Shown here: in pieces, positions 6,121 through 58,900 of the stretch
Layout: the number at the start of each line of letters is the position of its first letter
Numbering within the stretch: the stretch's first letter is position 1
From: an uncultured bacterium
GTDB lineage: Bacteria > Acidobacteriota > Thermoanaerobaculia > Multivoradales > JAHZIX01
Length of the DNA stretch: 64,000 nucleotides
NCBI GenBank assembly: GCA_965368975.1
Contig: CBDUPA010000012.1
Coordinates: 83,540 to 147,539, forward strand
Direction: 5' to 3'
The notes under the pieces: model-generated
Database searches by the model: none
What the model was told of the DNA's origin: nothing
What the model saw: the letters and a program-made list of their open reading frames with translations, nothing else
Made by a program: the position numbers and the translations under genes

Positions 6121-6441
6121 GTCTCCCTCCTCTCGATGCTGCCGACTTAGTTGAGACCAGGACCTGCCAAGGAAATAAATATCAGTCTTTCTTTAATCTT
6201 ATAGCAAGACGGATCTCTGTCGAAGTCCCCCGGCCAGACGTCGGCTCTCCAGGGGGCATTTGCATGTGGTCGCATCTACTAGATCCGAGCCCACACTGCG
6301 GTGCCGGGGGCTGCGCCCTCCGGCCCGGTCCCTCGGCGGATCGAGCGTCGCCCCCAGCGAACTGTGTGGACCACATCCCAGACCGTCTCCGCTACAATCC
6401 CCTCGACCCTTCGCCACTTTTCGCAACCGGGGGATTGCTGC

Positions 6442-32420: not shown

Positions 32421-33248
32421 ATGCTCTCTCGAATCGCGCGCCACCGCTTCGTGGAATTGATCCGCTCCCTGGACGCCAGAACCGACCTCGCCGAGGTTGC
32501 TTTGGTCGTGGCGGCCGAGACCACGCCCGGTCTGGATATCGAGGCCTACCTGCATCGTCTCGACTCCATGGCCGAAGAAGCGGATCGACGCACGCGTGCC
32601 GCCGAAGAGCCCCACCAGCGCATCGAGACGCTGAACCGCTACCTGTTCGAAGATCTCGGCTTCATCGGCGACGATGACGACTACTACAACCCGCGCAACA
32701 GCTTCCTCAACGAGGTTCTCGACCGCCGCTCCGGCATTCCCGTGACGCTGGCCCTGGTCTACCTCAGCCTCACTCGCCGCCTCGGCTGGCCGGTGGTCGG
32801 TGTCGGTTTCCCGGCGCACTTCCTGGTCAAGTACACGCGGCCGCAGATCCTCGTCGACCCTTTCACCGGCGAAGTGATCAACAAGCGCGAGTGTCGCCGC
32901 CGCTTGCGCATCGCCTTGGGCGACAACGCCGAGTGGCGCGACGACTACCTCGATCCCGCCGCGCCCGTAGACATCGTCCTGCGTTTGCTCACCAACCTCA
33001 AGCACATCTACATCCAGAGCCAGCGTCACGAACTAGCGCTCAGCTGCTGCGAACGCCTACTCCTGCTGCTACCGGACTCGCCCAAAGAGCTGCGGGATCG
33101 CGGGCTGGTACTGCTCGAACTGGAATGCCGCGAGGAGGCCTACGCCGACTTCGAACGCTTCCTCGAACTGGCCCCCGAAGACCCCGCCGCCGAAGCCGTG
33201 CGCGATGTGCTGTCGATGGCACGGCAGCAGATTCCCCTGGTCAACTGA
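32421..33248 (+). CDS. SirB1-like transglutaminase-fold/TPR protein (UPF0162 family)
   Basis: YYNPRNSFLNEVLDRRSGIPVTLALVYLSLTRRLGWPVVGVGFPAHFLVKY plus a C-terminal TPR-like segment. Confidence 0.6.
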   Translation: MLSRIARHRFVELIRSLDARTDLAEVALVVAAETTPGLDIEAYLHRLDSMAEEADRRTRAAEEPHQRIETLNRYLFEDLGFIGDDDDYYNPRNSFLNEVLDRRSGIPVTLALVYLSLTRRLGWPVVGVGFPAHFLVKYTRPQILVDPFTGEVINKRECRRRLRIALGDNAEWRDDYLDPAAPVDIVLRLLTNLKHIYIQSQRHELALSCCERLLLLLPDSPKELRDRGLVLLELECREEAYADFERFLELAPEDPAAEAVRDVLSMARQQIPLVN

Positions 33249-33279
33249 GCCTCCTCCTCCGCCTCTGCCTGCGCCGGAA

Positions 33280-33291
33280 CTGAATATTCAG
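33280..33291. promoter_or_regulatory. perfect 12-bp palindrome upstream of the RiPP promoter (candidate operator)
   Basis: CTGAATATTCAG, located in an AT-rich patch 34 bp upstream of the -35 box. Confidence 0.3.
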
Positions 33292-33324
33292 AGAGATAAT
33301 AAATCTTTGCAGCTAAGAGCTTAT

Positions 33325-33353
33325 TTGACAGCGGCTGCAAGCCTGGTTACGAT
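33325..33353 (+). promoter_or_regulatory. sigma70-like promoter for the precursor-peptide gene
   Basis: TTGACA (33325-33330), a 17-nt spacer, then TACGAT (33348-33353). It sits ~110 nt upstream of ATG 33463 in a locally AT-rich stretch. Confidence 0.45.
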
Positions 33354-33462
33354 TTCCCCATATTCTCCTATTGCGGGTCCTCTTCTCGAAGCCATTCGAA
33401 TCACGGTCATCCGGAGCCCCAGCGGTTCCTTATCTCACCACGTGACCTTTGGAGGACACATC

Positions 33463-33585
33463 ATGAACAAGAGCAAGAAGCCCGTCTCGCTGAACCTCGA
33501 ACTCGAAACCGTCGAGTCCCGCTGCAAGCCGGGCTGTGGCAGCTCCACCACGCTGCCGCTGTGCACCTGTCCCATTTCTTGCTGA
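33463..33585 (+). CDS. RiPP precursor peptide (lanthipeptide/thiopeptide-like), 40 aa
   Basis: GGAGG lies 7 nt upstream of the ATG. Product: MNKSKKPVSLNLELETVESR-CKPGCGSSTTLPLCTCPISC*. The leader has an LNLELE segment reminiscent of the class I F(N/D)LD box. The C-terminal 20 aa hold 5 Cys and 6 Ser/Thr. It sits immediately upstream of the split LanB genes. Confidence 0.75.
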   Translation: MNKSKKPVSLNLELETVESRCKPGCGSSTTLPLCTCPISC

Positions 33586-33591
33586 GGCGAT

Positions 33592-34695
33592 TTGGCTACC
33601 GGATCGGACCGTGAATCCGGTCCGGTAGCGGTACTCCTGAGCACCGTTTTCGCCCCATCGCCTGGGCAGCCCCCTGCCCCGGTATACACTAGAGGCGTGA
33701 AACAACCCGAGTCTCCGGAATCTGAGCATCCGGACCGTGATCCGGTCCCCGTACCGCCGGCTTCTCTGCAGGCTACTGCCGAGACGGAAGGCAACTACCC
33801 CGACCTGTACCTGGTTGCCGAGTGCGGCGAGCAGGATCAAGAGAAATTGGTGCGCGAACTGGTGGCCCCGATCGTGGCCGAGATCCGGGATCATCCGGAA
33901 CTCGAGTCGCTGTTCTTCGTGCGCATGAGCAAGCCTACCTGGCAAGTCCGCCTGCGTGTCGTCGGAGACTTGGAGTGGTTGCAGAACCGCTGCAGGCGCG
34001 TGATGTGCCTGCGTCTCGACGCCTTGCGCGGCCGGCGGGCGGTGCACGACTTCAGCCTGGGGCACTACGGGCGTGAGCTCGAGCGCTACGGCGGTGAAGG
34101 CGGCATGCGCATCGCCGAACAGCTGTACCACCACGACTCGCTCGCCTGCTTGGACCTGATCACCGCCGAGGCCCGCGGCCTGCTCGAACGTTCGCGGCGT
34201 GAGCTGGCGCTGCTCTACAGCGAGCGGCTGGCCAATCGGTTGGGCCTGCATGGCGAAGACCGCTCGCGCTTTTACCGCTACGGCTACCAGTGGACCTTCC
34301 AGACCGAGACCTGGGACCAGAGCGATGCCGACGCACTAGAAGAACGGTTCGAGCAACTGGAGGCCGGGCTGCGCTCCCTCTTTCCGCTGGGTGGCAAGGC
34401 ACCGCCCGAGACGGATCTCTGGGGCGGAGACGAGCCGGCGCGCGTTGGTGCCGGCCTGGCAGCGTCGCAAGAACCAGCGCTGGCACGGCTGCTCAAGGGG
34501 CACAGGGCGGGGCGCATCGGCGGTGATCTGGCCTACCTCGGCTGGTCCTACTGCCACCTCTTCTGCAACCGCCTGGGCATCGACCCGTCCGGCGAGGCGG
34601 TACAGCGCTACCTGATGCACCTGTACCACTACCGCGTCCGTGCCCAGGGCTCGCTGCCGGGGCCCTTGCTCACCGAAGCGGCCAGCGACACCTGA
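33592..34695 (+). CDS. LanB C-terminal (glutamate-elimination, SpaB_C / thiopeptide-type bacteriocin biosynthesis) domain protein
   Basis: LYLVAECGEQDQEKLVRELVAPIVAEIRDHPELESLFFVRMSKPTWQVRLRV... and LGHYGRELERYGGEGGMRIAEQLYHHDS fit the family pattern (FF-RY...H-RLR; Y-PE-ERYGG...AE-F--DS). The TTG start is uncertain; the N-terminal ~60 aa are Pro-rich. Confidence 0.7.
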   Translation: MATGSDRESGPVAVLLSTVFAPSPGQPPAPVYTRGVKQPESPESEHPDRDPVPVPPASLQATAETEGNYPDLYLVAECGEQDQEKLVRELVAPIVAEIRDHPELESLFFVRMSKPTWQVRLRVVGDLEWLQNRCRRVMCLRLDALRGRRAVHDFSLGHYGRELERYGGEGGMRIAEQLYHHDSLACLDLITAEARGLLERSRRELALLYSERLANRLGLHGEDRSRFYRYGYQWTFQTETWDQSDADALEERFEQLEAGLRSLFPLGGKAPPETDLWGGDEPARVGAGLAASQEPALARLLKGHRAGRIGGDLAYLGWSYCHLFCNRLGIDPSGEAVQRYLMHLYHYRVRAQGSLPGPLLTEAASDT

Positions 34696-34698
34696 ACG

Positions 34699-37464
34699 AT
34701 GGGGGACGGCTACCCCCGAGAGGCGGACTGCTGGCAGAGAGGGCCCCGCATCGCCCTCCTACGACTGGCGTTGCAACCCTGGCAGCGTCTGCAGGCTCTG
34801 CGCGCCGACGCGACCGTCGGGCACCTGGCCGTGGCCCGCCAGGCACAGGCCGAGCTCGACGCCCTCGTGCCGACGCTCGAGGCCGCACTGTTCACCGCCG
34901 CCGGTCCCAAGCGTCCCGCCGCCGGTCCCGTGGAGGCAGCGCGACGCCTGGCGTGCGTCGCGCTACGGCGGGCGGTGCACAATGGTCGGGAGTTGGACGC
35001 CTCGACACTCGGGAGCAGTGACCGCGACGGTGATCTGCAAGGGCAGCTGCAGCGATATAGCGAGCTGAAGGCTACTGTCGAGCGTGCCCGTGCCGCGGCG
35101 TTGCAGGCCTGCCAGGCCGAGTTGCCGCGGGCACGTCAGCACGTTCTCGACGCCAGCGCTGAACCGCTCCAGGCGGCGGCGCTAGCACTGGTCAGCCGAT
35201 CGCTGTTCCGCCGGCTGCAGCGTCTGCAGGCCGCAGCCGCACCCCATACTCAGGCCCGCGACGCCCAGACCCACGATACGCGTCACACCGTCGCCAAACT
35301 GCTCGCCTACCTCGACCGTGCCGCCAGCAAGACCAGCCCCAACGGCCTTTTCTGCGCCACCGCCGTCGCAACCTGGGGCGAGCGCCTGAACGTCCACCGC
35401 CTCGCTACGCCGCCGCGTGTCGATCTGCGCCTCAACGTCACCGAAGCGCGCAAACTCACCGCCCACCTCGGCTTCGGCCCGCAGATGGATGCCCTCGTGC
35501 GACCCCGTGTCACCACGACGCTGCATCGCCAATCCGCGGAGTCCGGCGAAGTCCTGACCTTCTGGCGCACAGCCTCGCTGCGTCGACCTGAGGACGACGA
35601 AGCTCTCCAGCGCCTGGGCGCACAGCCGATCGTCGACCTCTTCGTGCAACTGGCGGATGGTCGTCGCTCCGTTCCCGAACTCCTCCTGGCCGTCGCCAGC
35701 GCGGCGGCAGAGCACGGCATGGAAGTCAGCGTCGAGCAATTGGAGCCCTTCTTCCGCCAGCTCGTCGACGCCGGCCTGCTGCACGCCGAGATCGAGCTGC
35801 CGTACGGCTGCGGCCGCCCCCTGCGCGCGTTTGCGCATCGAGTTGAGGAACCGGCTGTCGACGGGGCCCCAAGGATTGCCGAGCTCGAAGCCATCGAAGC
35901 CGACCTCGACGCCGTCAACGCCACGCCCATCGAGGCCGCCGCTGCCGTCCGTCTGCCCGCCATCCTCGACGACCTGGCACGGCGTCTCGACGCCCAGGCA
36001 GCCACCCTGCCCGAACTGGCCCGGCCGCTCGTGCGCGATGAACTCTTCCGTCTCGACGCGGCCCTCGACGCGGCACCCGGTCGGCAAACCACCCTGCCGT
36101 GTCCCTGGCGCGACGCCCTGCAGCCCACCGTCGACGGCTACGCGCGCCTGTTCGCCTCGATGTACCCGTCGTCAAACTATCGTCAGCGCCTGGCGTCCGC
36201 CTTCCTGGAGCACTGGCCCGCGGACACCGACATCCCCCTGCTCGACCTCTACCATCACTTCCAACCACCACCCCCGGATTCCCGCGTACTCGACTTCCCG
36301 TGCCCGAGCAGCGATGTCGATAGCCAGCCGTACCAAGCCTGGCAGCAAGCCCGCGCCCTGCTCGTCGAGCTGGCCAGACAGGCCAGGGCGGCCGGGGAGC
36401 ACGAAGTCCGTCTCGACGACACCGCCTGGCATGCCTTGACGCATCCGCTTTCCGACCCAACCGGTCCTTCTGAGACGCTGAAGTGGACCGCCGGCGTTCT
36501 CTTCCAGCCCGTGCTCGCCAGTTCCGCGAACCGAAAGCAGCAGAACCGGCTCGTCCTCAACGCCCTCTTCTCGGGCACCGGCGTTGCCTTCGCCCGCTTT
36601 GCCGACCTGCACCCCGAAGTCGAGCCTGAGCTGCGCCGGCAACTCCGTGCCTCGGACTCTGCCGAAACCGCCCAAGTCCCCATCGTCGCCGAGCTGACCT
36701 ACAACCACTGGGGCCGCACCGCCAACGCCGGCCTGCGTCCACGACTCCACGAGTGGGAACTCGAACTCCCCGGTGACCGCGCCTCCGATGCTGGCTACGC
36801 CGCTGGCAAGGTCCTCACCCTCGCCGACCTCACCCTGCGCTACGACTCCACCGAGCAGCGCTTCCACCTGCGTCGCATCCAAGACGGTCGCCAGGTCCTC
36901 CCCGTTCTGTCGAGCGGCGTCAGCCCCGAAGGCCTGGTGGCGCTGCTGGTGGCGATCGGGCGTCAAGAGCAGCAGCCCCTTGGTCTGCTCCCCGGCTTCG
37001 CCTGGCCGGAAGAAGAGCTGGAACAAGACTTCCCAGACGGCGTTGAGACCTGGCCCCGCTTCGTCCGAGCTGTTTCTTCGGAGGCAGGCACTGACGAGAT
37101 CGACCTCGAAATCGTCCTCTGGCGCCGCCGCTGGCGCTTCCCCCGCGCCACCATTCCCAAACCCCCAAAGTCCCGCCCCGGCGACGACGCTGACCTCCAC
37201 CTCGCTACCTACTTCGCAGCCGTCGACACCTGGCGCCACCACCACCTCCTTCCTCGCCACATCTACCTCCACACCGCCACCGTCCGCAAGCCCACCCACG
37301 TCGATCTCGAATCCCCCCTCCACGTCGAGCTGCTGCGTCGACGCCTGGCGTCAGAGAAGGGAGATGTCTACGTCACCGAAGCGCTGCCGGGGCCAGAGGG
37401 TCTGTGGTGGGGCGGTGGAGACGAGCGCTCGAACGTCGAGGTGCTGGTGCAGTTGGGGGTGTGA
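34699..37464 (+). CDS. lantibiotic dehydratase (LanB) N-terminal glutamylation-domain protein
   Basis: 921 aa. VAKLLAYLDRAASKTSPNGLFCATAVATWGE matches the conserved LanB '...R-TPFGLFAGV..G' block. PELLLAVASAAAEHGMEVSVEQLEPFFRQLVDAGLLHAEIELP matches the typical winged-helix-like leader-binding region pattern. Confidence 0.75.
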   Translation: MGDGYPREADCWQRGPRIALLRLALQPWQRLQALRADATVGHLAVARQAQAELDALVPTLEAALFTAAGPKRPAAGPVEAARRLACVALRRAVHNGRELDASTLGSSDRDGDLQGQLQRYSELKATVERARAAALQACQAELPRARQHVLDASAEPLQAAALALVSRSLFRRLQRLQAAAAPHTQARDAQTHDTRHTVAKLLAYLDRAASKTSPNGLFCATAVATWGERLNVHRLATPPRVDLRLNVTEARKLTAHLGFGPQMDALVRPRVTTTLHRQSAESGEVLTFWRTASLRRPEDDEALQRLGAQPIVDLFVQLADGRRSVPELLLAVASAAAEHGMEVSVEQLEPFFRQLVDAGLLHAEIELPYGCGRPLRAFAHRVEEPAVDGAPRIAELEAIEADLDAVNATPIEAAAAVRLPAILDDLARRLDAQAATLPELARPLVRDELFRLDAALDAAPGRQTTLPCPWRDALQPTVDGYARLFASMYPSSNYRQRLASAFLEHWPADTDIPLLDLYHHFQPPPPDSRVLDFPCPSSDVDSQPYQAWQQARALLVELARQARAAGEHEVRLDDTAWHALTHPLSDPTGPSETLKWTAGVLFQPVLASSANRKQQNRLVLNALFSGTGVAFARFADLHPEVEPELRRQLRASDSAETAQVPIVAELTYNHWGRTANAGLRPRLHEWELELPGDRASDAGYAAGKVLTLADLTLRYDSTEQRFHLRRIQDGRQVLPVLSSGVSPEGLVALLVAIGRQEQQPLGLLPGFAWPEEELEQDFPDGVETWPRFVRAVSSEAGTDEIDLEIVLWRRRWRFPRATIPKPPKSRPGDDADLHLATYFAAVDTWRHHHLLPRHIYLHTATVRKPTHVDLESPLHVELLRRRLASEKGDVYVTEALPGPEGLWWGGGDERSNVEVLVQLGV

Positions 37465-37638
37465 GGGGGAGGTAGTTGCAGTCCAGGGCACTCGAGTCCT
37501 TGGTCTGCTTGACTGCGGTTTGCCGCGTACTAGATCAAGGGTTTCTTGTCTCTTTCGTAGTTGGGTAACGAGTGTCGCCGTCAATGAGTGACAGGGCAGC
37601 TCGAGTCACGAACCAGGTGACAAAAAGGGGATTGCATC

Positions 37639-40362
37639 GTGGTCGTATGTCTCTTGGAGACAGTCGTTCGAAGAGCAGTGACAGCTGCTGCGATTCTGAC
37701 GCTTGTCGTGGGACTGGGCTTACAGGCACAGTCAGGGTCTGCTAACGCCCCGAAAGGGGCCCAGTTTGTCTTCGTGATCGATGATTCTGGCAGCATGGGG
37801 CAGCCGGAACACGGGCTTACAGACCCCGATCGGCTGGCTGTGTTCGCGGTGCGTGCTCTACTGGGTGTGCTCGACGACCGGGACTGGGCGACAGTTGTTC
37901 GTCTCAATGGCCCTCGCGAGGGTGAAGATCCGCTATCGCTGGCGCCTTTGGGAGATGCGCACCGAACCCGGCTGATGGAGGTTCTGCAGCTGGACGCGGA
38001 ACTGGCGCGATATGAGGGGGAGTACACGCCTTGCCGAAGGGCTCTACAGGCCGTCAAGCGGATGCTCGAAGGGTCGGATAGGCAGAACATTTCCCAAGTC
38101 GTGATCTTCCTTTCGGATGGCAAGTGCACACCGGTAACGCAAGGGGAAGATCGTGTCCTTGACTTTGCTGAAGGTTTGCGCTCGGCTCAGGGAGAGAATC
38201 CGCGCCTTCAGTTCTACTTTCTGCGATTCGAAGGGCAAGAGTACACTCCGGGGCTGGAGCAGCTGGCCGAGAACACCGGAGGTTCGGCGATCGAGGTCCG
38301 ACAGGGGGATCCGACGCGGATCCTCTACACCTTTGCGCAAGCGCTGGCCCGCTCGCAGGGCTACGAACCTCTGATCCTCAGTCCGAGCGTGCGGCAGCTG
38401 CCGGCCTACCGGGGGGCCAACCGAGTCCGCTTGCTGGCAATTGCGCGCGGCGATCAGGGAGAGCCGTTGGCGGTGCGCGTCCGGCGTCGTCAAGGGGGCG
38501 GAGTCGATACGGTGCCGATCGAGCAGGGCACCCACAGATTCCCGGGGCAACAGGGGTATCGCTTCGCTTCGGTGCAGTATCGGCCGGTCGAGCAGCCGGT
38601 GGAGGTGGAGGTGGTCGGAGCCGGCGAGGATTGGGAGGTCGTTGCCTTGCCGGAATATCACCTGGCGGTCAACCTGGCCTTGCGTCGTGGTGGCTGTGAG
38701 GAGGAAGGCGAGACCCTGGGTGGCGTCACGCCAGCCGGAAGCGGATTGTGTGCGGTGATCGAGCTAGTCAATGAGGAAGGGCGCGTGGTGGGCAAGGAGG
38801 TGACCACCGGGCAGTTACAGGCTTCCTTGCGTCAGACAGTCCCGGGTGGTTCCGAGCCTCGGCTGATTTCGGCAACGGAAGCTTCCTCGGATCTCGCCAG
38901 CTTCCGCTTGGATATACAAGGGCTCGAGAGCGGTCACCACGAGTTTCAGGGGCAGGTCCAGTTGGGGACCCAGGTTGACGATCCCCGAGTTCTGACGGGC
39001 ACTGCGCGAACACTGCAAGCAGTAGATCTGGCGATCCGGCCGGTTCCGAGTGAGCTGCGACTCGATCCAATCCAGCCCGGTGAGGTCAGCCGTCAGAGCC
39101 TGGAGATCCATGGCAACTTCGCGCCGTCGGAAGCCGTGGTCTCCTTGGAAGAGGGAGAGAATCTGCCGAGCTGCGTGACCTTAAGCTTTGACGGCAAGGA
39201 GCTTGGAGAGACCATCTCGATTCGTCCAAAGCAGGGCTACTGGGTCGAATTTCGGGCGGCCAAAGCCTGCGGCGAGACGCAAGGTCGACAGGTCGATGCG
39301 CGCCTGCGCCTGGAGCTTGCGGGACTCGATTCGATTGCCATACCGGTAACCTTTCGCTTGGAGAACAACGCCCAACGCCGAGATCCGACAACAGTGGAAT
39401 TGCGGGCAGGTACGACGAGAGAGGTCGATGTAGCAATCCCCGCGGCCTGGAATTCTTTCGACGTACAAGCAACCGCCGCCGAGAATGCGCAGGGCGAAAC
39501 CTATGAGTTGCTGCGCGCTGAGATTCTGAGCGAGCCTCCGATTCCCTCTGAAGACGGTGAAGCCTCAGGTCGCCAGCGAGTCGAGGGATTGACCGCTGAA
39601 CAGGGACTGTCTCTGCAACTCGTAGCTTCGGGCTGTTGCAGGTCCGGGACCTACGCCCTCGATGTCTACCTGTGGCCCAAGGTCGGTGCCACGACCATCG
39701 TACCGCTGGTCGTCGAAGTCGAGGCCAGCTGGTGGACCTGCTACGGCTCTTGGGTGCTCGCGGGGACCATCGGTCTCTTGGCTGGCTTGCTGGTGTTCTA
39801 TGTCCTGAGCATGTTCAGTCATACCACCTTGCTCGACCGAGACCAGCTGAGCGCTCGTCTAGTGCCCTTACGCTGGCCTCGCCATCGCGGCGCACCGCAA
39901 CCCGCCAGCAATCGCAGTAGTGACCGAGAAGAGGTCGAAGACATTGTGCACAGTGAAGTCTCTAGCCTGCAGCGGGTGCGGAGCTGGCTACGAGCCAATC
40001 CCCTGGTCTTTGGCTCGCCTGGGCGAGAGTACAGAGAGACGGCCGAACTCTTTTTGACCACTGATCTCGGGCTAACCTCGATTTCCCTGGTATTGGAGCG
40101 GGATGTCGTCGACCGACTCCGGACGAGCGAGGAGATCGACACTTGGGAAGAGGGGAGGCTCTTCGCGCGCGCCGGCAATCCCGTCTCCTTCTTTGTCGTG
40201 CGCGGTCCGAGCAAGAAAGTTCAGCAGATGACTCCGGAAGGCTGGTTCGGCAAGGTCGATGACCTGACTGTCGAGCAGGTTTCCAAAGGACAAAGATTCA
40301 TTCGTCAGCTTTCCATCAAAGAGCGCAAAGAAGGCGCTGTGGCCGGGTGGGTTCTGGAATAG
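37639..40362 (+). CDS. exported von Willebrand factor A (vWA) domain protein with single C-proximal TM helix and cytoplasmic tail
   Basis: Signal/anchor: RRAVTAAAILTLVVGLGLQAQS. vWA with MIDAS: FVFVIDDSGSMGQ...; VVIFLSDGKCTP. About 500 aa of beta-rich repeats follow. TM helix: WWTCYGSWVLAGTIGLLAGLLVFYVLSMF. The tail is ~200 aa. Confidence 0.75.
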   Translation: MVVCLLETVVRRAVTAAAILTLVVGLGLQAQSGSANAPKGAQFVFVIDDSGSMGQPEHGLTDPDRLAVFAVRALLGVLDDRDWATVVRLNGPREGEDPLSLAPLGDAHRTRLMEVLQLDAELARYEGEYTPCRRALQAVKRMLEGSDRQNISQVVIFLSDGKCTPVTQGEDRVLDFAEGLRSAQGENPRLQFYFLRFEGQEYTPGLEQLAENTGGSAIEVRQGDPTRILYTFAQALARSQGYEPLILSPSVRQLPAYRGANRVRLLAIARGDQGEPLAVRVRRRQGGGVDTVPIEQGTHRFPGQQGYRFASVQYRPVEQPVEVEVVGAGEDWEVVALPEYHLAVNLALRRGGCEEEGETLGGVTPAGSGLCAVIELVNEEGRVVGKEVTTGQLQASLRQTVPGGSEPRLISATEASSDLASFRLDIQGLESGHHEFQGQVQLGTQVDDPRVLTGTARTLQAVDLAIRPVPSELRLDPIQPGEVSRQSLEIHGNFAPSEAVVSLEEGENLPSCVTLSFDGKELGETISIRPKQGYWVEFRAAKACGETQGRQVDARLRLELAGLDSIAIPVTFRLENNAQRRDPTTVELRAGTTREVDVAIPAAWNSFDVQATAAENAQGETYELLRAEILSEPPIPSEDGEASGRQRVEGLTAEQGLSLQLVASGCCRSGTYALDVYLWPKVGATTIVPLVVEVEASWWTCYGSWVLAGTIGLLAGLLVFYVLSMFSHTTLLDRDQLSARLVPLRWPRHRGAPQPASNRSSDREEVEDIVHSEVSSLQRVRSWLRANPLVFGSPGREYRETAELFLTTDLGLTSISLVLERDVVDRLRTSEEIDTWEEGRLFARAGNPVSFFVVRGPSKKVQQMTPEGWFGKVDDLTVEQVSKGQRFIRQLSIKERKEGAVAGWVLE

Positions 40363-40408
40363 AGCTCGAGGCCGGTCCGAAAACAAAAGCAAAATTGCGA
40401 GGTTGAAC

Positions 40409-43400
40409 ATGGCCAGAGATCGTAAGTTGATCGTCGAAGAACTCCTGACCAAGCCCAGCGGCGTGTGTCCGATGCTGTTCGTTGGTATGGGAGGAGCGGG
40501 TTGCAGGATGGTGGAGCGGATCGCCGGTCATCTCCGAGGTCGACCGGATTATAAAGAACGCTTCAAAGATCTGGTCAAGTTCGCCATGATCGACAGCAAT
40601 GTCAATGATCTGGAAGGGTATCGAGAAGTGGCCAATGCAACCTTCCTGATCAGTGACTTCGAGAAGGAGGAGTACGCCAATCTGGCCTCTGGCAAGAAGT
40701 TCCTGGAACCGCAGCAGTACTTTACACAGTGGGTGCCGTCGGACTATCGCTTCCGCTCCGGAGATACCTCGGGGGCTGGCCAGATTCGCATCGAATCTCG
40801 TCTGGGTGTTTACTACCAGATGAAGCACAAACAATTCGTGCCCAGATTCCGCAGTCTCTTGGAGAGTCTGAAGTCGCACGAGAACGGACATCGGAGGTTG
40901 GACTCCGACGAGATCCGGATCGTACTCTGCTATTCCGTCGCCGGCGGAACCGGCTCCGGTTGTCATCTGCCAGTGGCCTATATGTTGCGGGATCAGGCCG
41001 ACGACCTGGGCAAGCCGACTTTGATCGGTGTTGCGGTGTTGCCGGCGGTCTTCGAGGACAAGGTCGGCGTCAATAAGGATGGTGTTTTTGCCAACGGTTA
41101 TGCAGCTCTGAAGGAAACCGAGCATTTGATGAAGCTCGGTGCCCCGGATTCTCGGTTCTTTCCCGAGAAGGGGATCGAGTTTCACTACAACCCCGCCGAT
41201 GAATCGAAGCGAACGGTTCACGCGCGTCCCTTCGACTTCCTTTATCTGATCGACAAACCCGAGTCGTTCAGCGTTCCCGAGCCGGTGGATGCTGCGGCGG
41301 ACGGACTCTATCTGCAGTTCTTCTCGCCCCTCTACGGGGCCCAGCTCTCCGACTACGACAACTACACGCAGTACCAGAGGTTCTTGGTACCGGAAGACTT
41401 CGAAGAGGGAGGCATTCCGGGCTTCTCGACCTTCTATGGCTCCTACGGTTGCGCAGTGCTCCTGGTGCCGGTTCCCGGCCTGGTGGAGTATTGCAGCCAG
41501 GCTGCCGCCCTGGCGTTGATTCGGGCCAGCTTCATGGGGGATATCCCAGCGGATCCGATGTACGAGCCCTTGCGCATCGACAGCGACCGCTTCTATGAAG
41601 TCAAGGAGCGCGACGACGAGGATGCGCAGCTCTTCCAGGCTGCGGATATCCCCAGTCAGCCTCAGAAAGAGCGTCGCCGAAGGTTGTTCGATCGGCTTTT
41701 TGCCAAGCGGGTGCGCCTGCTGGCGGCGTGTGAGTACCGGGCTGACCGCGACGGCCGGTTCCGCGGCATCTTCCGGCACGGCCACTATCTCGGAACCATC
41801 CCGAAGCTCGACGGTAGCGCCGTCATGGACATGGAGCGGTTCGACGAAGAGGCCGAGCGCGAGCGCGAGCTGGTCGGTGGCAAGCTCAGCGTTTCGATCG
41901 GCGGCATCATCCTGCCCGCCTTGGTCGGACTGCCGGGGGACGACCCCGGACTCCTGCAACGGGCGCACCAAGCGATCAAGAACTTCAAGGTCGACAAGCC
42001 GCGTCGTGACATGCGGGTCAACGAACTACGAGCGCGCGGCGACGCGTGGCGGACGATGTTGAGGGATGAGGGGCGTCAACGCCTGCGCGATGGCTACAGC
42101 GATGGCACGGTGCAGGTGCCTGGCATGGAGAGCCTGGTGCAAATGGACTTCCTGCGCCGGGAGGCGGGAGAGGTCGAGCTGGCGGCCAAGCGCTACGCGG
42201 TGCTCTCTCTGCTCGACGCGGTGGATTGGGAACAAGCGCCGGAAGACGAGGCCGAGTCCAACTTCGATGTCCAGGAGAAGAAGCCCACGGCCAAGGCCGA
42301 CGATGCCTTGATCGAGCACGTAATCAACCAGGCTCGGGATCTGGCCTTCCGCGACATCCGCCGCGAGTTCCTGTCCCAATTGGGCGAGTTGCGCGAGGCG
42401 CTGGAGAGCATCGCCGACGAGATGCGGGAGCTGGAGCAGGGGTCGACCAACCTGGAGCGCGAGTACGGTCGTCGCCTGGAGCGCCTGCAGTTCCAGGGCG
42501 AGGAGTCGGCCAATCAGTACATCCTGGACGCCGAGGCGTTGCAAGGGGAAGACAATCGACGCTTCTGGGACTTCTACTTCGAGGACAAAATCGCAGCTCT
42601 GCCCGAGTTGTCGCTGAGCAATGCTCGCGTGCAACAAATCCTGAGTGACACCGTCATCGAGCTATCGCAGCGTACGGGCCGCAGCACGAGCACGTCACGC
42701 CTGGAGAAACTGTTCACCGCGTTGCGCAAGTATGCCCAGGACTTCCTCGACAAGCGGATCGGCGGTGATCGTCACTCACCGGACCTGGAACGTCGCGAAG
42801 GGTTGACGCTGTCGGATGCGCTGGAGCTGGAGATCACCTACCGAGCGCTCTATCGCAGCTACGCCGAAGCGATCCAGGGGCAGGGGGACAAGGTCATTCG
42901 TCGCATTCTCTCCGAATACCGCGCCCTGCCCGACGAGAAGCAGATCGATTTCGCGGAGCCCAAGCACCAGGACTATCTGCGCGACAAGATCAAGCGGGTA
43001 GTGCAGGAGAAGGCATCCCTGCTCTGTGTCTACAACCACTCACGCGATCAGCATGGTGGCGTGCGGCCAAACCATATCTTCCTGGCCGCGATTGATGAGA
43101 ACTTCAAGAACAGCAACATCGAACAGGCGCTGAAAGATGCCGACATCGATGATCTCAAGTGGGTGTCCGGCAGCTGGCACAACGCCAAAGAGATCGTCTT
43201 CTACCGCGCGGTGTTGAATGTTCCGCTTTACACCTTCGGTCGGCTCGACCAGATGAAGCACCACTATGAAAGCTTCCGCAGTCTGAGGCGGCGCTCGAAG
43301 GTGCTGCACATCGACAAGAACTGGGAGGGTGACCAGCTCTGTGACCTGGATCCGGGCACGCTCAAAGAAGTGCATCGTCAACTAACCGTGCGCGACCAGA

Positions 43401-44278
43401 TCATCAACTTCACCTCGCTGCTGAGCAGCAAGCATCCGCGCATCGATGAGAAGGGGGCTACCTGCATCTTGCGTCGGCGCGGGCGCTACTATCTGCTGGA
43501 TCCGACCCTCAGCAAGATACCCGATGAGCACGATCCTGGTTCGACCTTGTTGGGCGACGCCCTGGCCCGAGCCATCGAACGCTTGCCCGAGGTGCTCGAT
43601 GCCGAGCGCGTGAACTTCAGCGAGTACCGGGATTCGCTGCACGGTGTACGCAATGGCATGGCCCCGTGGCTGCTGGGCAAGATCTGCAGGTTACCTTTCC
43701 AGTGGCGCCTGCAATACGAAGATTTGAGCAACCACTATGGGCATCAGCGTTCGATCGAGCAGCAAGAGATTCTGCGTGATCTGAAAAACTCCTACGAGAA
43801 GCTCAATGAAGCGCTGGACTCTCTGCTCGCGGAACTGCGCAATCGTCGACTCGAGAGTCGGACCCGCAAGGAGGACTTCACGGTCTACGCTCGCCGCTTG
43901 ACCGCCCAGCAGGCCAAGGATGCACTGGATCAGAGCATCAAGGTGCTGGCCAACTACAGCGAGGCCTGGAGCAAGGTCGAGGACAGCTCGCAGGTCCCGG
44001 ATACCCCCGAGTCGTTCGTGGATCTCTTCCAGCCTCTGGACCATGGCAAGTTGCAGAGCATGCTCGACAAGTTGCACAAGCCGATCCTTGATGACGATGA
44101 TGACGATGAGGAAGGCGATGGCCCCGGCCCAGCCAAGCCCCCAGCGGAGCCGGTCAAGCGCCCAGCGGAGCCAGACAAGCCCTCAGCGGAGCCAGACAAA
44201 GACTCGGCGGAGCCAGACGAAGACTCTGCCACTGAAGAGCCTTCGGAACCAGATCCCACTGAAACCGAAGGGTCATGA
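40409..44278 (+). CDS. giant tubulin/FtsZ-superfamily GTPase (Tubulin_2 / FtsZl-1-like) with long coiled-coil region and acidic repeat tail
   Basis: MLFVGMGGAGCRMVERI (G-box/T1-like), GDTSGAGQIRIESRLG (T3-like), and IRIVLCYSVAGGTGSGCHLPVAYML with the tubulin signature AGGTGSG at nt 40940-40960. GAGG lies 6 nt upstream of ATG 40409. The C-terminal ~800 aa are helical or charged. Confidence 0.7.
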   Translation: MARDRKLIVEELLTKPSGVCPMLFVGMGGAGCRMVERIAGHLRGRPDYKERFKDLVKFAMIDSNVNDLEGYREVANATFLISDFEKEEYANLASGKKFLEPQQYFTQWVPSDYRFRSGDTSGAGQIRIESRLGVYYQMKHKQFVPRFRSLLESLKSHENGHRRLDSDEIRIVLCYSVAGGTGSGCHLPVAYMLRDQADDLGKPTLIGVAVLPAVFEDKVGVNKDGVFANGYAALKETEHLMKLGAPDSRFFPEKGIEFHYNPADESKRTVHARPFDFLYLIDKPESFSVPEPVDAAADGLYLQFFSPLYGAQLSDYDNYTQYQRFLVPEDFEEGGIPGFSTFYGSYGCAVLLVPVPGLVEYCSQAAALALIRASFMGDIPADPMYEPLRIDSDRFYEVKERDDEDAQLFQAADIPSQPQKERRRRLFDRLFAKRVRLLAACEYRADRDGRFRGIFRHGHYLGTIPKLDGSAVMDMERFDEEAERERELVGGKLSVSIGGIILPALVGLPGDDPGLLQRAHQAIKNFKVDKPRRDMRVNELRARGDAWRTMLRDEGRQRLRDGYSDGTVQVPGMESLVQMDFLRREAGEVELAAKRYAVLSLLDAVDWEQAPEDEAESNFDVQEKKPTAKADDALIEHVINQARDLAFRDIRREFLSQLGELREALESIADEMRELEQGSTNLEREYGRRLERLQFQGEESANQYILDAEALQGEDNRRFWDFYFEDKIAALPELSLSNARVQQILSDTVIELSQRTGRSTSTSRLEKLFTALRKYAQDFLDKRIGGDRHSPDLERREGLTLSDALELEITYRALYRSYAEAIQGQGDKVIRRILSEYRALPDEKQIDFAEPKHQDYLRDKIKRVVQEKASLLCVYNHSRDQHGGVRPNHIFLAAIDENFKNSNIEQALKDADIDDLKWVSGSWHNAKEIVFYRAVLNVPLYTFGRLDQMKHHYESFRSLRRRSKVLHIDKNWEGDQLCDLDPGTLKEVHRQLTVRDQIINFTSLLSSKHPRIDEKGATCILRRRGRYYLLDPTLSKIPDEHDPGSTLLGDALARAIERLPEVLDAERVNFSEYRDSLHGVRNGMAPWLLGKICRLPFQWRLQYEDLSNHYGHQRSIEQQEILRDLKNSYEKLNEALDSLLAELRNRRLESRTRKEDFTVYARRLTAQQAKDALDQSIKVLANYSEAWSKVEDSSQVPDTPESFVDLFQPLDHGKLQSMLDKLHKPILDDDDDDEEGDGPGPAKPPAEPVKRPAEPDKPSAEPDKDSAEPDEDSATEEPSEPDPTETEGS
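44141..44224 (+). repeat. 4 x 21-bp in-frame tandem repeat (PAEPVKR/PAEPDKP/SAEPDKD/SAEPDED) inside the tubulin-like gene
   Basis: CCAGCGGAGCCGGTCAAGCGC / CCAGCGGAGCCAGACAAGCCC / TCAGCGGAGCCAGACAAAGAC / TCGGCGGAGCCAGACGAAGAC. Confidence 0.85.
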
Positions 44279-53649: not shown

Positions 53650-53801
53650 AGATCTGTAGATTTCTGTGCTGGATTTCCGGGAATGGCTCCACTAAGAAGA
53701 AACGCGAGAACACGTCGATTCCCGGACCAACGGCTGTACTCAATCTCGGCGGAAAAATTCAGCTTGGCTTTCTGAGTGGCTTAGATCATGAAGACGGGCC
53801 C

Positions 53802-55967
53802 TCAAACCCGCGACGCCACCCACTCGCTGATCCTCCCGTGCGCAGTCACCAGCGCCGACTTGCGGGCACGCGTCAGCGCGACGTAGAGGAGGGCGCGTTC
53901 CATGAGTTCGGTTTCGCGCTGGATGGCTCGGTCTTTGGAGTAGCGCACGCGGGTGCGCCAGGGCATGTTGTCGTCGCTCAGGCCGGCGACGATCATGTGG
54001 TCGTACTCTAGGCCTTTGACGCGGTGCATGGTGGCGACGCGTAGGCCGGGTTTGTCGGCGTCGTCGCTGGTGTCGCGGCCCAGACGCAGGGTGGGGACGC
54101 CTCGGTCTTCTAGGGCTTCGGCGTAGCGGTCGGCGAGGGCGTTGGTGCGGGCGACGAGGCAGGCGTGGGTGGTCTCGCGGTCGGTGAGCCATTGGGCGAT
54201 GGCTTCGACTTCGTCGTCGAAGGTGGGTAGTTCGAGGGTTTGGGGGACCGCGCCGTGGGTGAGGGAGCGGTAGCCTTGACGCGAGTCGGCGGTGCCGTCG
54301 AGGTCGTCGAATTCTTGGTTCTCGAGCACGGCGACGGCGTAGCGGCGGATTTCGTCGGTGGTGCGGTAGTTGATGCGCAGGCGGCGGCCGCGACCGCGGA
54401 TGTTGACGCCAGCGTGGGAGAGCACGACGCGCTTACGGTAGATGCGCTGGTGGCCATCGCCGACCAGGAAGAGGTCGTCCGGCTTTTCGGGGACGGCGGC
54501 GCGCAGCAGGCGGAAGGCGTTGGTGCTCATGTCTTGCGCTTCGTCGACGACGATGGAGCGTAGCGCCAGCTGTACGCGGCCGGCTTCGAGCAGCACGCAG
54601 GCGTCGAGCAGGGCGTCTTCGGGTTCGCGCAGGCCGTGCTTGTCGAGCTGGTGGCGGTATTCTTCGAATACCGGCCAGATCGCCTTGCGCTGGGCGCGAC
54701 TGAGGCGCTCACCGCGACCGGCGCGGCTGGCTCGCTTGTAGTCTTTCCAGCTCTGGCAGCCTTGCGCCTGCACCACGGCTTCCCACTCGTCGCGGTAGAA
54801 GGACTCGGAGACTTCGAGGTGGGTTGCGGGATCGGATGCGCTGCTGGGCGCCAGCGTGAGGGCGGAGTCCCAGGAGTCCTTCAGCGGGCCACGGCTCGGA
54901 TCCCAGTACTTGATCCGGTATTCGTAGCCGGCGCGCAGCAGCAGGTCACGCACCCATTTGTCGATGTTGACGACATCGATGCGTCGCAGCGCTTCGGGTG
55001 GGCACAGGCGCGCCAGGTTGGCGCGGATGTCGTTGGCCAGGTTCTTGGTGAAGGTGGTGAAGAGGATGCGATCGCCGGGGGCGACGAAGACGTTCTGCGC
55101 CAGGTAGGCGGCGCGATGCATGGCGACGACGGTCTTGCCGGTACCGGCGCCGCCGAGCACGCGCACGGGACCGTTCCAGCTACGCTCGACCAGTTTGCGC
55201 TGGCTCGGGTGCAGGAAGGTGCGCCACTTTTCGAGCGGCGCGTCGAGCATCGCCTGCAGGCTGGCGTCGTCCTCGACGACCACGAAACGCCGCTTGGTGG
55301 CGTCGCGTTCGAGGGCGCGGTCGATGTCCGAGGTGTCGATGTCGGGCTCGGCGGACACCGCCATGGCCTGTTCGACTTCTTCCAGCGACTCGCCCTCGCT
55401 GAGCCAGTAGAGGGCTTCGAAAGCCTCGGGCGGCAGCTGCGCGGAAAGGGCCTCCAGTTCGTGGGCCCTGCGCAGCGCGCGCACCTCGTCGAGCTGGGGC
55501 TCGGGGACGCCGAGGCGCAGGAGTTCGCGGTCGCGGATGGCGTCGAAGAGGCGCGTTTCGACGGTGCCGGCACTTGCTGCCGGCGTCTCTGCCCCGTCCC
55601 GGGGCGACGCCGTCGCTTGGCGGCTGAAGACCTGCAGGGCGCCGGTTTCCGGGTGCACCGAGACGCTCTTGTGCTCGGCCCAGCGCATGGCTTTGTCGTG
55701 GTGGTCGATCCACAACAGCAGGTAGGTGTTGCCCTTCTCGGGCTGACGTACGATGGCTCGGTACTCCAGGTCGATGCGCACGGTGCGTAGACGCGGATCG
55801 GAGAAGGTGCTGATGGGCTCGTAGTTGATGCTGGACTGCGTGGGGTCCTGACGGAATTTGCGCAGGAACTTGCTCACCTTCTTCTGCTGTGCGCGCGGGA
55901 TGAGCGCGAAGGCATCGAAGAATTCCTCGTAGATCGCGACTTTGAAGGTTTGCTCGTAGGCCATCAC
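53802..55967 (-). CDS. UvrD/Rep-family SF1 helicase with RelE/ParE-fold-like N-terminal domain
   Basis: 721 aa. Walker A: VRVLGGAGTGKTVVAMHRAAYL. Walker B: SIVVDEAQDMS. C-terminal motifs: RVATMHRVKGLEYDHMIV, LLYVALTRARK. The N-terminal ~100 aa (KVSKFLRKFRQDPTQSSINYEPI...RTVRIDLEYRAIVRQPEKGNTYLLLWIDHHDKAM) follow the RelE/ParE toxin pattern. ATGA overlap with the upstream gene. Confidence 0.8.
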   Translation of the reverse strand: MMAYEQTFKVAIYEEFFDAFALIPRAQQKKVSKFLRKFRQDPTQSSINYEPISTFSDPRLRTVRIDLEYRAIVRQPEKGNTYLLLWIDHHDKAMRWAEHKSVSVHPETGALQVFSRQATASPRDGAETPAASAGTVETRLFDAIRDRELLRLGVPEPQLDEVRALRRAHELEALSAQLPPEAFEALYWLSEGESLEEVEQAMAVSAEPDIDTSDIDRALERDATKRRFVVVEDDASLQAMLDAPLEKWRTFLHPSQRKLVERSWNGPVRVLGGAGTGKTVVAMHRAAYLAQNVFVAPGDRILFTTFTKNLANDIRANLARLCPPEALRRIDVVNIDKWVRDLLLRAGYEYRIKYWDPSRGPLKDSWDSALTLAPSSASDPATHLEVSESFYRDEWEAVVQAQGCQSWKDYKRASRAGRGERLSRAQRKAIWPVFEEYRHQLDKHGLREPEDALLDACVLLEAGRVQLALRSIVVDEAQDMSTNAFRLLRAAVPEKPDDLFLVGDGHQRIYRKRVVLSHAGVNIRGRGRRLRINYRTTDEIRRYAVAVLENQEFDDLDGTADSRQGYRSLTHGAVPQTLELPTFDDEVEAIAQWLTDRETTHACLVARTNALADRYAEALEDRGVPTLRLGRDTSDDADKPGLRVATMHRVKGLEYDHMIVAGLSDDNMPWRTRVRYSKDRAIQRETELMERALLYVALTRARKSALVTAHGRISEWVASRV

Positions 55968-58900
55968 TCAGTCTCCTCTGCTAGCGCCTCTGCTAGTACC
56001 TCGGCCAGCGGCGAGACGTCGACCGTCCCGTCGGGCTCGAGCGCCAGGTCTTCCAGGTAGAAAAGTCTCCAGTCCGCCGCCGGCTCGCCGACGGCCCAGG
56101 CGCTGTCGGCGTACGAGGTGAGCGCGACGCGCGCGGTGTGCCACACCAGTTCGGCCTCGCTCCACACGGTATCGCGCTGGTTCGGTATGTCGTCACCGAC
56201 CACCGGCTCCACGATGCCCGCGGCGATCATGGCCTCGGCGGCGCCTCGGTAGGCGTCCTCGATCTCGTCGAGCTGTGTCCAGATTGCATCCTCGCCTTCC
56301 GGGCCGTGCTCGGCGAGGCTGCGCAGCTGAGCGATGCCGCTGTAGTCGCCGACGTCCGATGTGGTGACGAAGACGATGTCGTCGATCGCGCGCAGCCACT
56401 GGAAGAGACGCAGGAAGCCACGCCACGCCCGGTGCATCTGCGGCAGTTCGCGCCGATCTTCGCGGTCGTCGAGTTCGCGGTCGTCGAGGCGGGCGAGCAC
56501 GGTCACTCGCTGACCATCGTGGGCGGCCATCCACTCGATCTGCCGCGGCTCGCCCCAGGTGCCGCTGGCGAGGGCGCGGGGCCTCGTCGCGGCGAGCTGG
56601 TCGCGTAGGGCTTCCGGTGCCGCTTGCCGCGCGAACTCGGTCCAGGCGCGTTGCTGACTCGGCAGCGTGGCTTCGAGTCGAGGTACCAGCGCCGCCGCCG
56701 CCAGGTCGCGCCACGGCAAGCCGTTGGCATCTTGGAGGTCCTGCAAGAGCCAGCGGAAGGTCGACTGTTGCGGCAGGTCGGTGAACTGGGTGAGGCCCAG
56801 CTGCTGGAGAGCCTTCTTGAAGTCACCCAGGTCGAGCGCCGCCAGTTCGGGCGCGGGCTCGACCTCGGTGGATCTCGTCAGCTCGGCTTCCAGATCGTCC
56901 CAGGTGAAGGTCCACACGTCCCAGCCCGCGGCCAGCAGTGCCTGGCGCTGGCGCAGGTCCTGCCCCAAGCGATCTTGGTGGAACTGCCAGCCGTCGAGGA
57001 AGATGGCCAGACGACGATCGGTGGCGGCGCTGGCCGGTCGCAGCACGAAGTCGATCGAGACGCCGATGCCGCCGGTCTCGGCCCTCGGCGGTTCGACCTG
57101 CGGCTCGATACGCCATTGGGCGTCGCCCAGCGTCCACAGCCAAGCATCTTTGATGCCGATCGGGATCCGCTTCAGCTGGGCTGGGTGCTGTTCGTTGCCG
57201 GCGCGTAGTAGGGCTTCGAGGAAGCGGGCTTCGAGGGCACTGTCGAGCAGGCCGGAGTGGCTGATGTCGCCCAGGCGTTCGATTTCCTGCACGCTGTCGG
57301 CGCGCGCCAGGATGCGGCGCAGGATCTCGGAGGCCGTGCGCGCCGAGGTGTCGCGCATCTCGCGACTGTTGCGGTAGCCGAAGAGGCAGCGATAGCAGCC
57401 TTCCACCAGCTTGCCGGCTCGGTTCGTGGTGCCCCAGCAGGCGCAGCCCTCGATCCGTTGCAGGCTCGCCTCGAGAGCTCGGAACAGGGGTATCGTGGCA
57501 TCGGCATCGGGCGTGACCAGCTGTTTCAGAAAGCCGGTGCCGCCGGGCACGGAGTCGAAGAGCACCAGGTACTGGCGGCGCAGCGTGCTGTCGGGAGTCG
57601 GTTCGGAGTAGACGGTGGTGCGCAGGTGGTCGACGCTGCCGGCGAAGTAGCTCTCCAGCCCCAGCTGCAGGGCGGCGGTGAACGAGTTGAGCTGGCGCGT
57701 GCCGGCGAAGTCGGTGATCGGCAGCAGCAGGCGCAGGGCCTCGGACTCGAGCTGGCGGTAGAGATAGACGCAGGACTCGATCTGCTCGTCCGTGTCCTTG
57801 CGTCGCGACGGGCAGGACAGCAGGTGGTCGGTCTTCTCACCCTTGCGCGTCGCCTGCACCTTGCCGCAGCGTGCGCACAGCTCGAAACCCTGGCGCACCA
57901 TGGCTCGGCCGGCGATGGTGTTGCGCGCGCCCAGGTCGGAGGGTTCGCCGAAGTTGATGTCGCGAAAGGTCACCCGTGCGCAGTACTCGAAGCCGAAGGG
58001 GTGACGGTCGTCGTCCAGCCGCCAGGCGCGCGAGGAACTGCGAGTGTCGAAGGTGGGCAGGATGTCGCGCTCGAAGAAGCGCGGCTGGCGTTCGTCGCGA
58101 TCGTCGCGAATCCGGGAGTTGCGGTCGGATTCTCTGGCGAATACTTGCTCCAGCTTCAGCAGGCGCTGGGTCTGGCCGCTGTCGCGCCAGTCGGCGGCGC
58201 CGCAAACCGGGCAGGCCGTGTGCGCATCGCCGGTGTCGATCGACTCGGCGTGGCTGCACTCGGGGCAGAAGCGCCAGGTCTCGAGCTTGGAGGACGAGAG
58301 ATCGACGGCGTCGATGCCCACGCGTCGTCCCGAAGCGTAGAACTCGGCGCCAGGCGCCAGCTCGGCCAGGGCGCTCGACGGCGAGCGCTTGTACTCGTAG
58401 GTCCAGGTTTCGTAAGGACTCCCCTGGGCTGGAGGGTGCTTCTTGCGCCGCCAGATCACCGAGCGCAGTCGCACCGCCGACTCCGGGAAGGCGTAGTTGG
58501 GCAGCAGGCCCTGGTCGGTGAGGAATTCGAGCGTCGAGCGCTGGTTGATCGCCTTGATCAGGCCGATCAGGGCCTCTTTCTCGGCTTCGCGCTCGTCGAT
58601 CTGCTCCTGGTGGTCCTTGTCGCGGGCCTCGGTGGCGCGTAGCACTTTGAGTTGCTTGCGCAGGGTCTCTACGTTGGCGCGGTGTGCTTCGCGCTGCTTG
58701 CGTTCCTTGTGCAGGGTGTCGAGCAGGCGGCTTTCGAGGGTCGCCTCGATGTGGTGCAGGGCATCTCGAGCTTGCGCCTTCTCGGGCTGCTCGCTGTCGA
58801 GTTCAGCTTTGGCCTCCGCGCCGAGCAGGAAGCGCTCCAGGTGGGCGGCGGTGGGCGGTCCGATCTCGTCCTCGAACATCTCGAGGAATTCTCGCAGCAG

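Follow-up and report, generated by a model that had tools for sequence, protein, structure and literature searches.

A 64-kb stretch of DNA from an uncultured, Acidobacteriota-like bacterium (contig CBDUPA010000012.1; hereafter the window) encodes a compact three-gene cassette: a gene for a 40-amino-acid (aa) precursor peptide, MNKSKKPVSLNLELETVESRCKPGCGSSTTLPLCTCPISC, followed on the same strand by two genes that together specify a LanB-type dehydratase split into an elimination protein (eliminase) and a glutamylation protein (Table 1). Sequence comparison supports leader-guided, Glu-tRNA-dependent glutamylation of the precursor and subsequent glutamate elimination at invariant Ser and Thr residues as its probable chemistry. 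Our preferred interpretation, held tentatively and at slightly under even confidence, is that the cassette carries out the dehydration steps of a class-I-type lanthipeptide pathway whose genes are scattered over the genome, with ring closure by a LanC cyclase encoded in trans.

The assignment of the two enzymes is supported by several lines of evidence. First, both halves exceed the curated cut-offs of the domain models. The open reading frame (ORF) at 33592–34695 matches PF14028 (Lant_dehydr_C) at 3.3e-33 and TIGR03891 at 3.1e-28, and the 921-aa product of the gene 3 nt downstream matches PF04738 (Lant_dehydr_N) at 1.4e-46. A preliminary description of this DNA had proposed a split LanB dehydratase and named the N- and C-domain profiles as its own check, which the two proteins pass. 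Second, a profile built from 48 PF14028 proteins of the family, when searched against solved structures, found its best matches in the elimination domains of full-length LanBs; it matched MibB (1.4e-19), 9g04 (5.3e-18), NisB (1.6e-10) and, scoring below the elimination domains, TsrE (1.7e-9), which has DWLGG at the position of the family's ERYGG. Alignment to NisB (4wd9) places R87, R130 and H287 of the 332-aa window protein at R786, R826 and H961, the residues required for glutamate elimination. None of the 43 single or primary copies, the window's among them, has lost any of the three. Third, the solved structures closest to the profile of the 921-aa family are TbtB (6ec7, 3.8e-36) and GodF (9jhq, 3.3e-16), and the glutamylation active-site motif Y-x2-R-x3-K-T-S-P, represented here by Y204, R207, K211, T212, S213 and P214, is invariant in the family.

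The same data bear on the earlier suggestion that the protein then read as 367 aa might do something else, such as act as a pyridine synthase. In that case the PF14028 protein would be a [4+2] pyridine synthase-like enzyme or another cyclase in a pyritide- or thiopeptide-like system; pyridine synthases share its fold, and PF14028 paralogues lacking catalytic residues do occur at four related loci (L003, L016, L036 and L050). We consider this very improbable and rejected it. A pyridine-synthase role is unsupported because the window holds one PF14028 gene, with all three eliminase residues intact, and the family profile prefers elimination domains to TsrE. Further, neither a second PF14028 gene, the candidate for a [4+2] enzyme, nor a thiopeptide YcaO (PF02624) was found in the window, and a pathway deprived of its eliminase would have no route from glutamylated intermediates to dehydroalanine (Dha). 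The degenerate paralogues number five: L003 has two, the other three loci one apiece, and each lacks between one and three eliminase residues. They accompany precursors of a G-G-C type, one has W for the R826 equivalent as TsrE does, and they may have a non-elimination role.

The precursor gene is equally well supported by comparison. No Pfam or NCBIfam model matches the window peptide. Another 76 distinct precursors, drawn from 43 other loci, align with it, and the total of 77 covers every one of the 44 sources whose upstream sequence is long enough, each source having one to five precursor genes. The Cys-, Ser- and Thr-rich ORF noticed at the outset is thus no chance reading frame, and its conservation beside homologous enzyme pairs, on which the preliminary description had staked its proposal, is borne out. 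The family shares a leader box, [FL]-[NDS]-L-E-[VIL]-x2-[VIL]-E, that resembles the FNLD box of class I leaders and reads LNLELE here. The core behind it, G-C-x(1-2)-[ST]-S-[ST]-T-x3-C-T-C, is invariant and usually continues with P. The window peptide, with predicted core (C)KPGCGSSTTLPLCTCPISC, belongs to a C-[NK]-P-G-C-G subgroup and terminates just past C-T-C-P-I-S plus one extra Cys. Across the family the C-termini vary and the internal Ser, Thr and Cys residues are conserved.

This pattern of conservation also argues against a different activity for the larger enzyme. PF04738 covers the peptide aminoacyl-tRNA ligases (PEARLs) as well (PMC9247985), and the LanB-N protein could in principle extend the peptide in the manner of a PEARL; alternatively, the cassette could be a decaying remnant. 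We regard either as exceedingly improbable. By definition a PEARL, a small LanB, works without an elimination partner and takes a conserved C-terminus of its scaffold peptide as acceptor. A catalytically intact eliminase is always adjacent to the glutamylation gene, at every locus with enough upstream sequence; what is conserved in the precursors is the internal Ser, Thr and Cys residues and not the C-termini; and the whole trio is intact and conserved across 44 sources. The PEARL reading was rejected: the first two of these points, together with the TbtB and GodF matches and the invariant glutamylation motif, argue against it.

Signals around the precursor gene are consistent with an operon led by the peptide. 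The sigma70-like promoter proposed for it earlier is present, matches the consensus at 10 of 12 positions and is the sole such match across 33200–37700, where shuffled sequences would be expected to give 0.2; GC content is 52% in the intergenic region at the promoter, against 66% window-wide. The perfect 12-bp palindrome reported earlier, CTGAATATTCAG, lies 5′ of the −35 element and is a possible operator. With 37 perfect palindromes of that length in the window, two of them AT-rich (this one included), it is not statistically notable and carries little weight, and we dropped it as evidence.

Directly 3′ of the precursor stop codon, the construct 33583–33650 folds at −30.3 kcal/mol (z = −2.8) into a hairpin that is likely to be an attenuator or mRNA-stabilizing element. 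In the family, 30 of the 77 precursor genes have a stable hairpin (z < −2) behind them, which matches the usual layout of lanthipeptide operons: a precursor, a hairpin and then the enzymes. The hairpin also affects where the eliminase begins. Translation from TTG 33592 would give 367 aa and the 7-nt spacing to the precursor gene given in the preliminary description. Homologues are 285–311 aa long and align to the 367-aa ORF only from residue 72, and the 14-bp stem sits inside the TTG extension. A start at GTG 33697, giving 332 aa after a structured spacer of about 110 nt, is therefore more likely, which makes the 7-nt spacing doubtful and the 367-aa length probably an artefact of choosing the first TTG.

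The cassette defines a discrete family and an uncharacterized clade of split LanB enzymes. A word-indexed search returned 16 relatives of the 921-aa protein at 36–40% identity, and among 1.84 billion representative proteins about 24 full-length relatives score 235–470 bits, with the next LanB-like proteins at 85 bits or less. A one-genome-per-species scan gave 45 cassette loci, nearly all from metagenome-assembled genomes (MAGs) of Acidobacteriota (Thermoanaerobaculia and Polarisedimenticolia) and a minority from Eisenbacteria, Verrucomicrobiia, Binatia and Omnitrophota; in high-GC loci, genes were called with weighting by third-codon-position GC, avoiding antisense shadow ORFs. A tblastn search of plasmids with the LanB-N protein gave no match. 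The window's SecD shares 57–62% identity with proteins from MAGs of Acidobacteriota and Thermoanaerobaculia, which places the window in Acidobacteriota near Thermoanaerobaculia. The order of small ORF or ORFs, PF14028 gene and PF04738 gene recurs in unrelated neighbourhoods, for example after a ribosomal-protein operon, by tricarboxylic acid cycle genes and by kinases. The window LanB-N protein is the deepest and most isolated branch of the family tree.

Taken together with the conserved residues, these features suggest the following scheme. One promoter would drive the precursor gene, with the hairpin letting fewer transcripts reach the two enzyme genes. The 921-aa protein would bind the L-N-L-E leader box and, using Glu-tRNA(Glu), esterify S27, S28, T29, T30, T35 and perhaps S39 of the core, from which the 332-aa protein would eliminate glutamate to leave Dha and dehydrobutyrine (Dhb). 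The invariant C25, C34 and C36, along with C21 and C40 of this peptide, could then add to the dehydro residues to form lanthionine and methyllanthionine rings. A thioether between T30 and C34, at a fixed i+4 spacing, is one example. The rings would be closed by LanC cyclases whose genes lie outside this window, at other places in the genome. For the core from C21, the calculated monoisotopic mass is 1969.84 Da, falling to 1861.78 Da with six dehydrations.

A Pfam scan of some 32 large ORFs across the whole 64 kb detected no LanC, YcaO (PF02624), SagB-type azoline dehydrogenase, dedicated peptidase or transporter. Searches of the window's six-frame segments by phmmer, with NisC (its sequence confirmed against PDB 2g02 at 2.4e-271) and Thermoanaerobaculia LanCs as queries, likewise found no LanC, and the same searches recovered the known LanCs of control loci. 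The early reading of a ribosomal-peptide (RiPP) cassette of precursor and split LanB, with no cyclase, YcaO, protease or transporter in the window, therefore stands.

Where, then, would the cyclase be encoded? We searched the flanks of 47 related non-redundant loci over up to 10 kb, with 28 of the loci offering 8 kb or more to either side. LanC turned up within 10 kb in two of the 47, as a pair of genes in L013 and as a contig-edge fragment in L030, and in none of the other 45. In both cases LanC lies 5–8 kb upstream of the cassette, separated from it by opposite-strand genes that include one for a PGM1-like ATP-grasp ligase (PF24923/PF18105). Relatives of the L013 LanC are abundant in Thermoanaerobaculia: they make up at least 120 clusters with identities of 51% or above, and those that are named carry that class label. 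In all four distinct Thermoanaerobaculia-type contexts that we opened, the LanC genes stand as tandem pairs or triples with precursors of their own, and none of these orphan modules has a LanB gene within 10 kb. In one MAG, GCA_036402955.1, a LanC-less cassette (L011, on DASWRX010000028.1) and a LanC triple (L060, on DASWRX010000205.1) are found on separate contigs. LanC-less LanB cassettes and LanB-less LanC modules, both present in one MAG, indicate that the lineage holds reciprocal half-clusters. Among the explanations offered at the outset, a cyclase encoded elsewhere thus gains direct support from the orphan modules of the same class, the linkage in L013 and L030 and this MAG, and it is the best-supported reading; that it applies to this organism, and that the two kinds of module work together, would follow from these genomic patterns by extrapolation.

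Several observations weigh against a trans-encoded cyclase. The window itself contains no LanC. The two LanC-linked loci form a single shallow, nested subclade of the family tree, whereas the window protein branches deepest, so the linkage looks derived. The orphan LanC modules carry precursors of a second, different family, in which a leader of the form MKKKFKKL-x-L-x2-ETL ... GG precedes a (C-T-x-x)n core, and these modules may be unrelated to the cassette. The co-occurrence of cassette and LanC module rests on one binned MAG. Finally, the cassette is found in many unrelated neighbourhoods in several phyla, a pattern that is easier to understand for a self-sufficient unit.

These points lend weight to a LanC-independent cassette, in which the invariant cysteines, which lie close together, would add to Dha and Dhb spontaneously, as the preliminary description also proposed, or on a LanB template to give a compact, thioether-knotted peptide. 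We judge this unlikely, although more probable than the other alternatives. The three genes move together through unrelated settings in Acidobacteriota, Verrucomicrobiota, Eisenbacteria, Binatia and Omnitrophota, LanC is missing from the flanks of 45 of 47 loci and from the whole window, and its linkage is limited to one nested subclade. Further, the T-x3-C spacing is fixed, and rings of such small size are able to form without an enzyme. Conversely, the same type of core adjoins LanC genes in L013 and L030, an unlinked LanC module accompanies the cassette in one MAG, and it would be unusual for three to five rings of defined topology to close uncatalysed. A fuller version, that the three genes are a complete LanC-free pathway in which the split LanB alone makes a thioether-knotted or Dha-rich peptide, seems to us rather unlikely; its product would be retained in the cell, because most loci have no exporter or protease. 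A weaker extension, drawn by analogy with the lanthiphages discussed below, would have this peptide work with nearby defence genes.

The genes around related cassettes bear on a further alternative. We tallied 215 flanking genes of at least 200 aa within 5 kb of the cassettes. The recurrent families are S-adenosylmethionine-dependent methyltransferases (about 18, directly 3′ of the LanB-N gene in at least 11 loci), major facilitator superfamily transporters (9) and extra PF14028 copies (9). ATP-binding cassette ATPases numbered 4 in a first set of 112 genes and fell outside the top 25 families of the second set. LanC, YcaO and SagB-type proteins are absent from the recurrent families. The window cassette, with none of the recurrent accessory genes, is the minimal form.

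The product might not be a lanthipeptide at all: Dha and Dhb could persist, or the cysteines could form disulfides, bind metal or be converted at Gly-Cys to a thiazole by an unlinked GMC-type oxidase resembling ThaO and TheO. These GMC oxidases form a thiazole at Gly-Cys without YcaO in Thermoanaerobaculia RiPPs, peptides of ribosomal origin that are modified after translation (2026; PMC13083261). Gly-Cys is invariant in the cassette precursors (G-C-G in the window), a methyltransferase gene directly follows LanB-N in at least 11 loci, and in L001, a TARA coral-reef scaffold, a divergently oriented GMC-family oxidoreductase gene lies 620 nt 5′ of the precursor gene. We nevertheless find such a product improbable. 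Free thiols next to Dha are chemically unstable, a subclade of cassettes is associated with LanC, and the oxidoreductase occurs at L001 and its duplicate contig L002 but not in the window, for which reason we rejected a general GMC oxidoreductase link.

A trans-encoded cyclase acting on a dehydrated precursor remains our preferred account of the window cassette. Related loci show further variation. Besides the ATP-grasp gene, present in both L013 and L030, a PMT_2-type polytopic glycosyltransferase-like gene lies directly 5′ of the precursors in L010, L013 and L048, which suggests that the subclade with these genes has a larger, more decorated cluster. In L007 the cassette directly follows an rpsM-rpsK-rpsD-rpoA-rplQ operon, and six loci (L007, L018, L034, L035, L046 and L047) have an elongation factor G gene no more than about 5 kb away, an odd recurrent housekeeping setting.

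Table 1. Features of the window and of related loci (window positions unless a locus is named).
Feature	Positions	Strand	Details
TIR protein (ThsB-like) with tetratricopeptide repeats	6301-9306	+	1001 aa; 2.2e-31
Perfect 12-bp palindrome	33280-33291		sequence reading
Sigma70-like promoter	33325-33353	+	TTGACA-17-TACGAT
Shine-Dalgarno GGAGG	33451-33455	+	sequence reading; precursor ATG 7 nt further on
Precursor gene	33463-33585	+	40 aa; ATG 33463 to TGA 33585
Hairpin	33595-33629	+	14-bp stem, 7-nt loop; from folding
Eliminase gene (LanB C-domain type)	33697-34695	+	332 aa; alternative start TTG 33592
Glutamylation gene (LanB N-domain type)	34699-37464	+	921 aa; PF04738
Four-gene vWA/tubulin-like operon	37639-52258	+	directly after the cassette
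Defence-island-like stretch	52263-63900	-	
UvrD/GajB-like helicase	53802-55967	-	
DruE-type Druantia helicase with MZB domain	55964-62461	-	2165 aa; padloc 3.6e-99
Type IIG restriction-methyltransferase fragment	62458-63900	-	3.9e-76
Degenerate PF14028 paralogues	L003:7033-7896; L003:9147-10001; L016:8122-8931; L036:2496-3344; L050:9132-9995		
Orphan tandem LanC modules	L055:8703-13085; L057:9742-12531; L058:10001-12789; L059:9555-12507; L060 (= L055)		
GMC-family oxidoreductase	L001:6610-8220	-	
PGM1-like ATP-grasp ligase	L013:4256-6061; L030:5903-7444	-	
PMT_2-type glycosyltransferase-like gene	L010:245-1981; L013:7011-8810; L048:1494-4715	+	
Housekeeping neighbourhood (ribosomal-protein operon directly before the cassette)	L007:5252-8676		

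In the window, the upstream neighbours of the cassette are genes for SecD, SecF and a transglutaminase-like/tetratricopeptide repeat protein. Directly downstream, as the preliminary description had it, is an operon headed by a von Willebrand factor A (vWA) gene, encoding a vWA protein (907 aa), a Tubulin_2 protein (PF13809, 1291 aa), a 1351-aa protein and a DEAD-like helicase (1315 aa). No padloc model matches the vWA and tubulin-like proteins, and the matches of the 1351-aa protein to LeoBC (3.8e-5) and of the 1315-aa helicase to a DRT helicase (5.6e-4) are weak. The operon is followed by a defence-island-like stretch on the opposite strand, whose DruE-type helicase gene lies about 16 kb from the cassette. 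Far upstream, the 1001-aa TIR protein is built like a STAND protein, an architecture that typifies proteins of defence or signalling, with a weak match to the AAA_16 NTPase model (3.4e-4, under the Pfam cut-off). A general association of the cassette with defence islands was rejected, the neighbours across the family being mostly housekeeping genes.

Our searches of the literature found no experimental or bioinformatic description of this cassette or of its core motifs. Common mining rules require LanC for a lanthipeptide and YcaO for a thiopeptide. The survey of Walker et al., for instance, was seeded on LanC (PMC7268733). LanC-less cassettes are likely to have been overlooked because such rules are keyed on LanC or YcaO, and, if the LanC-free reading is true, a lanthipeptide-like class would be invisible to them. 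The reciprocal orphan modules suggest that Acidobacteriota lanthipeptide pathways can be split across loci, which matters for boundary-based cluster mining and for heterologous expression. In addition, an azole-independent split LanB with a short leader is a possible tool for installing dehydroamino acids.

Glutamylation and elimination on separate polypeptides are known from thiomuracin (TbtB and TbtC) and goadsporin (GodF and GodG). Azole-forming enzymes belong to both pathways, and a [4+2] enzyme to that of thiomuracin; the cassette has neither, nor a linked enzyme that would convert its cysteines. Pyritides (MroA, MroB, MroC and MroD) come from a similarly minimal, azole-free cluster in which a split LanB makes Dha (PMC9247985), but their formation depends on MroD, a [4+2] enzyme that is a second PF14028 protein, and their core is Cys-free and ends in a recognition tripeptide. 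In the window there is a single canonical eliminase, and the core is rich in Cys. The cassette thus falls outside the thiopeptides, pyritides and PEARLs as these are defined. Lanthiphages share a LanB-type dehydratase and colocalize with anti-phage defence systems (10.1101/2024.06.26.600839). They are restricted to Actinobacteria and combine LphB and LphD/E accessory proteins with the LanC protein LphC, which is always present; the window has no LanC, no PF01135 protein and an Acidobacteriota-like host, and cassette neighbours in the family are mostly housekeeping genes. In the class I clusters of the pinensins and nocathioamides, too, the substrate of a split LanB is a core with Ser, Thr and Cys that follows an FNLD-like leader. 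Those clusters include LanC (PMC8362196; PMC7268733), as the related loci L013 and L030 do; it is missing from the window and 45 of 47 related loci, and the precursor family of the cassette is new. With the glutamylation domain, the elimination domain and the leader/core precursor of a class I cluster but no linked LanC, the cassette is best classed as representing a split-LanB clade of its own, one that has a new precursor family and as a rule no cyclase gene linked to it.

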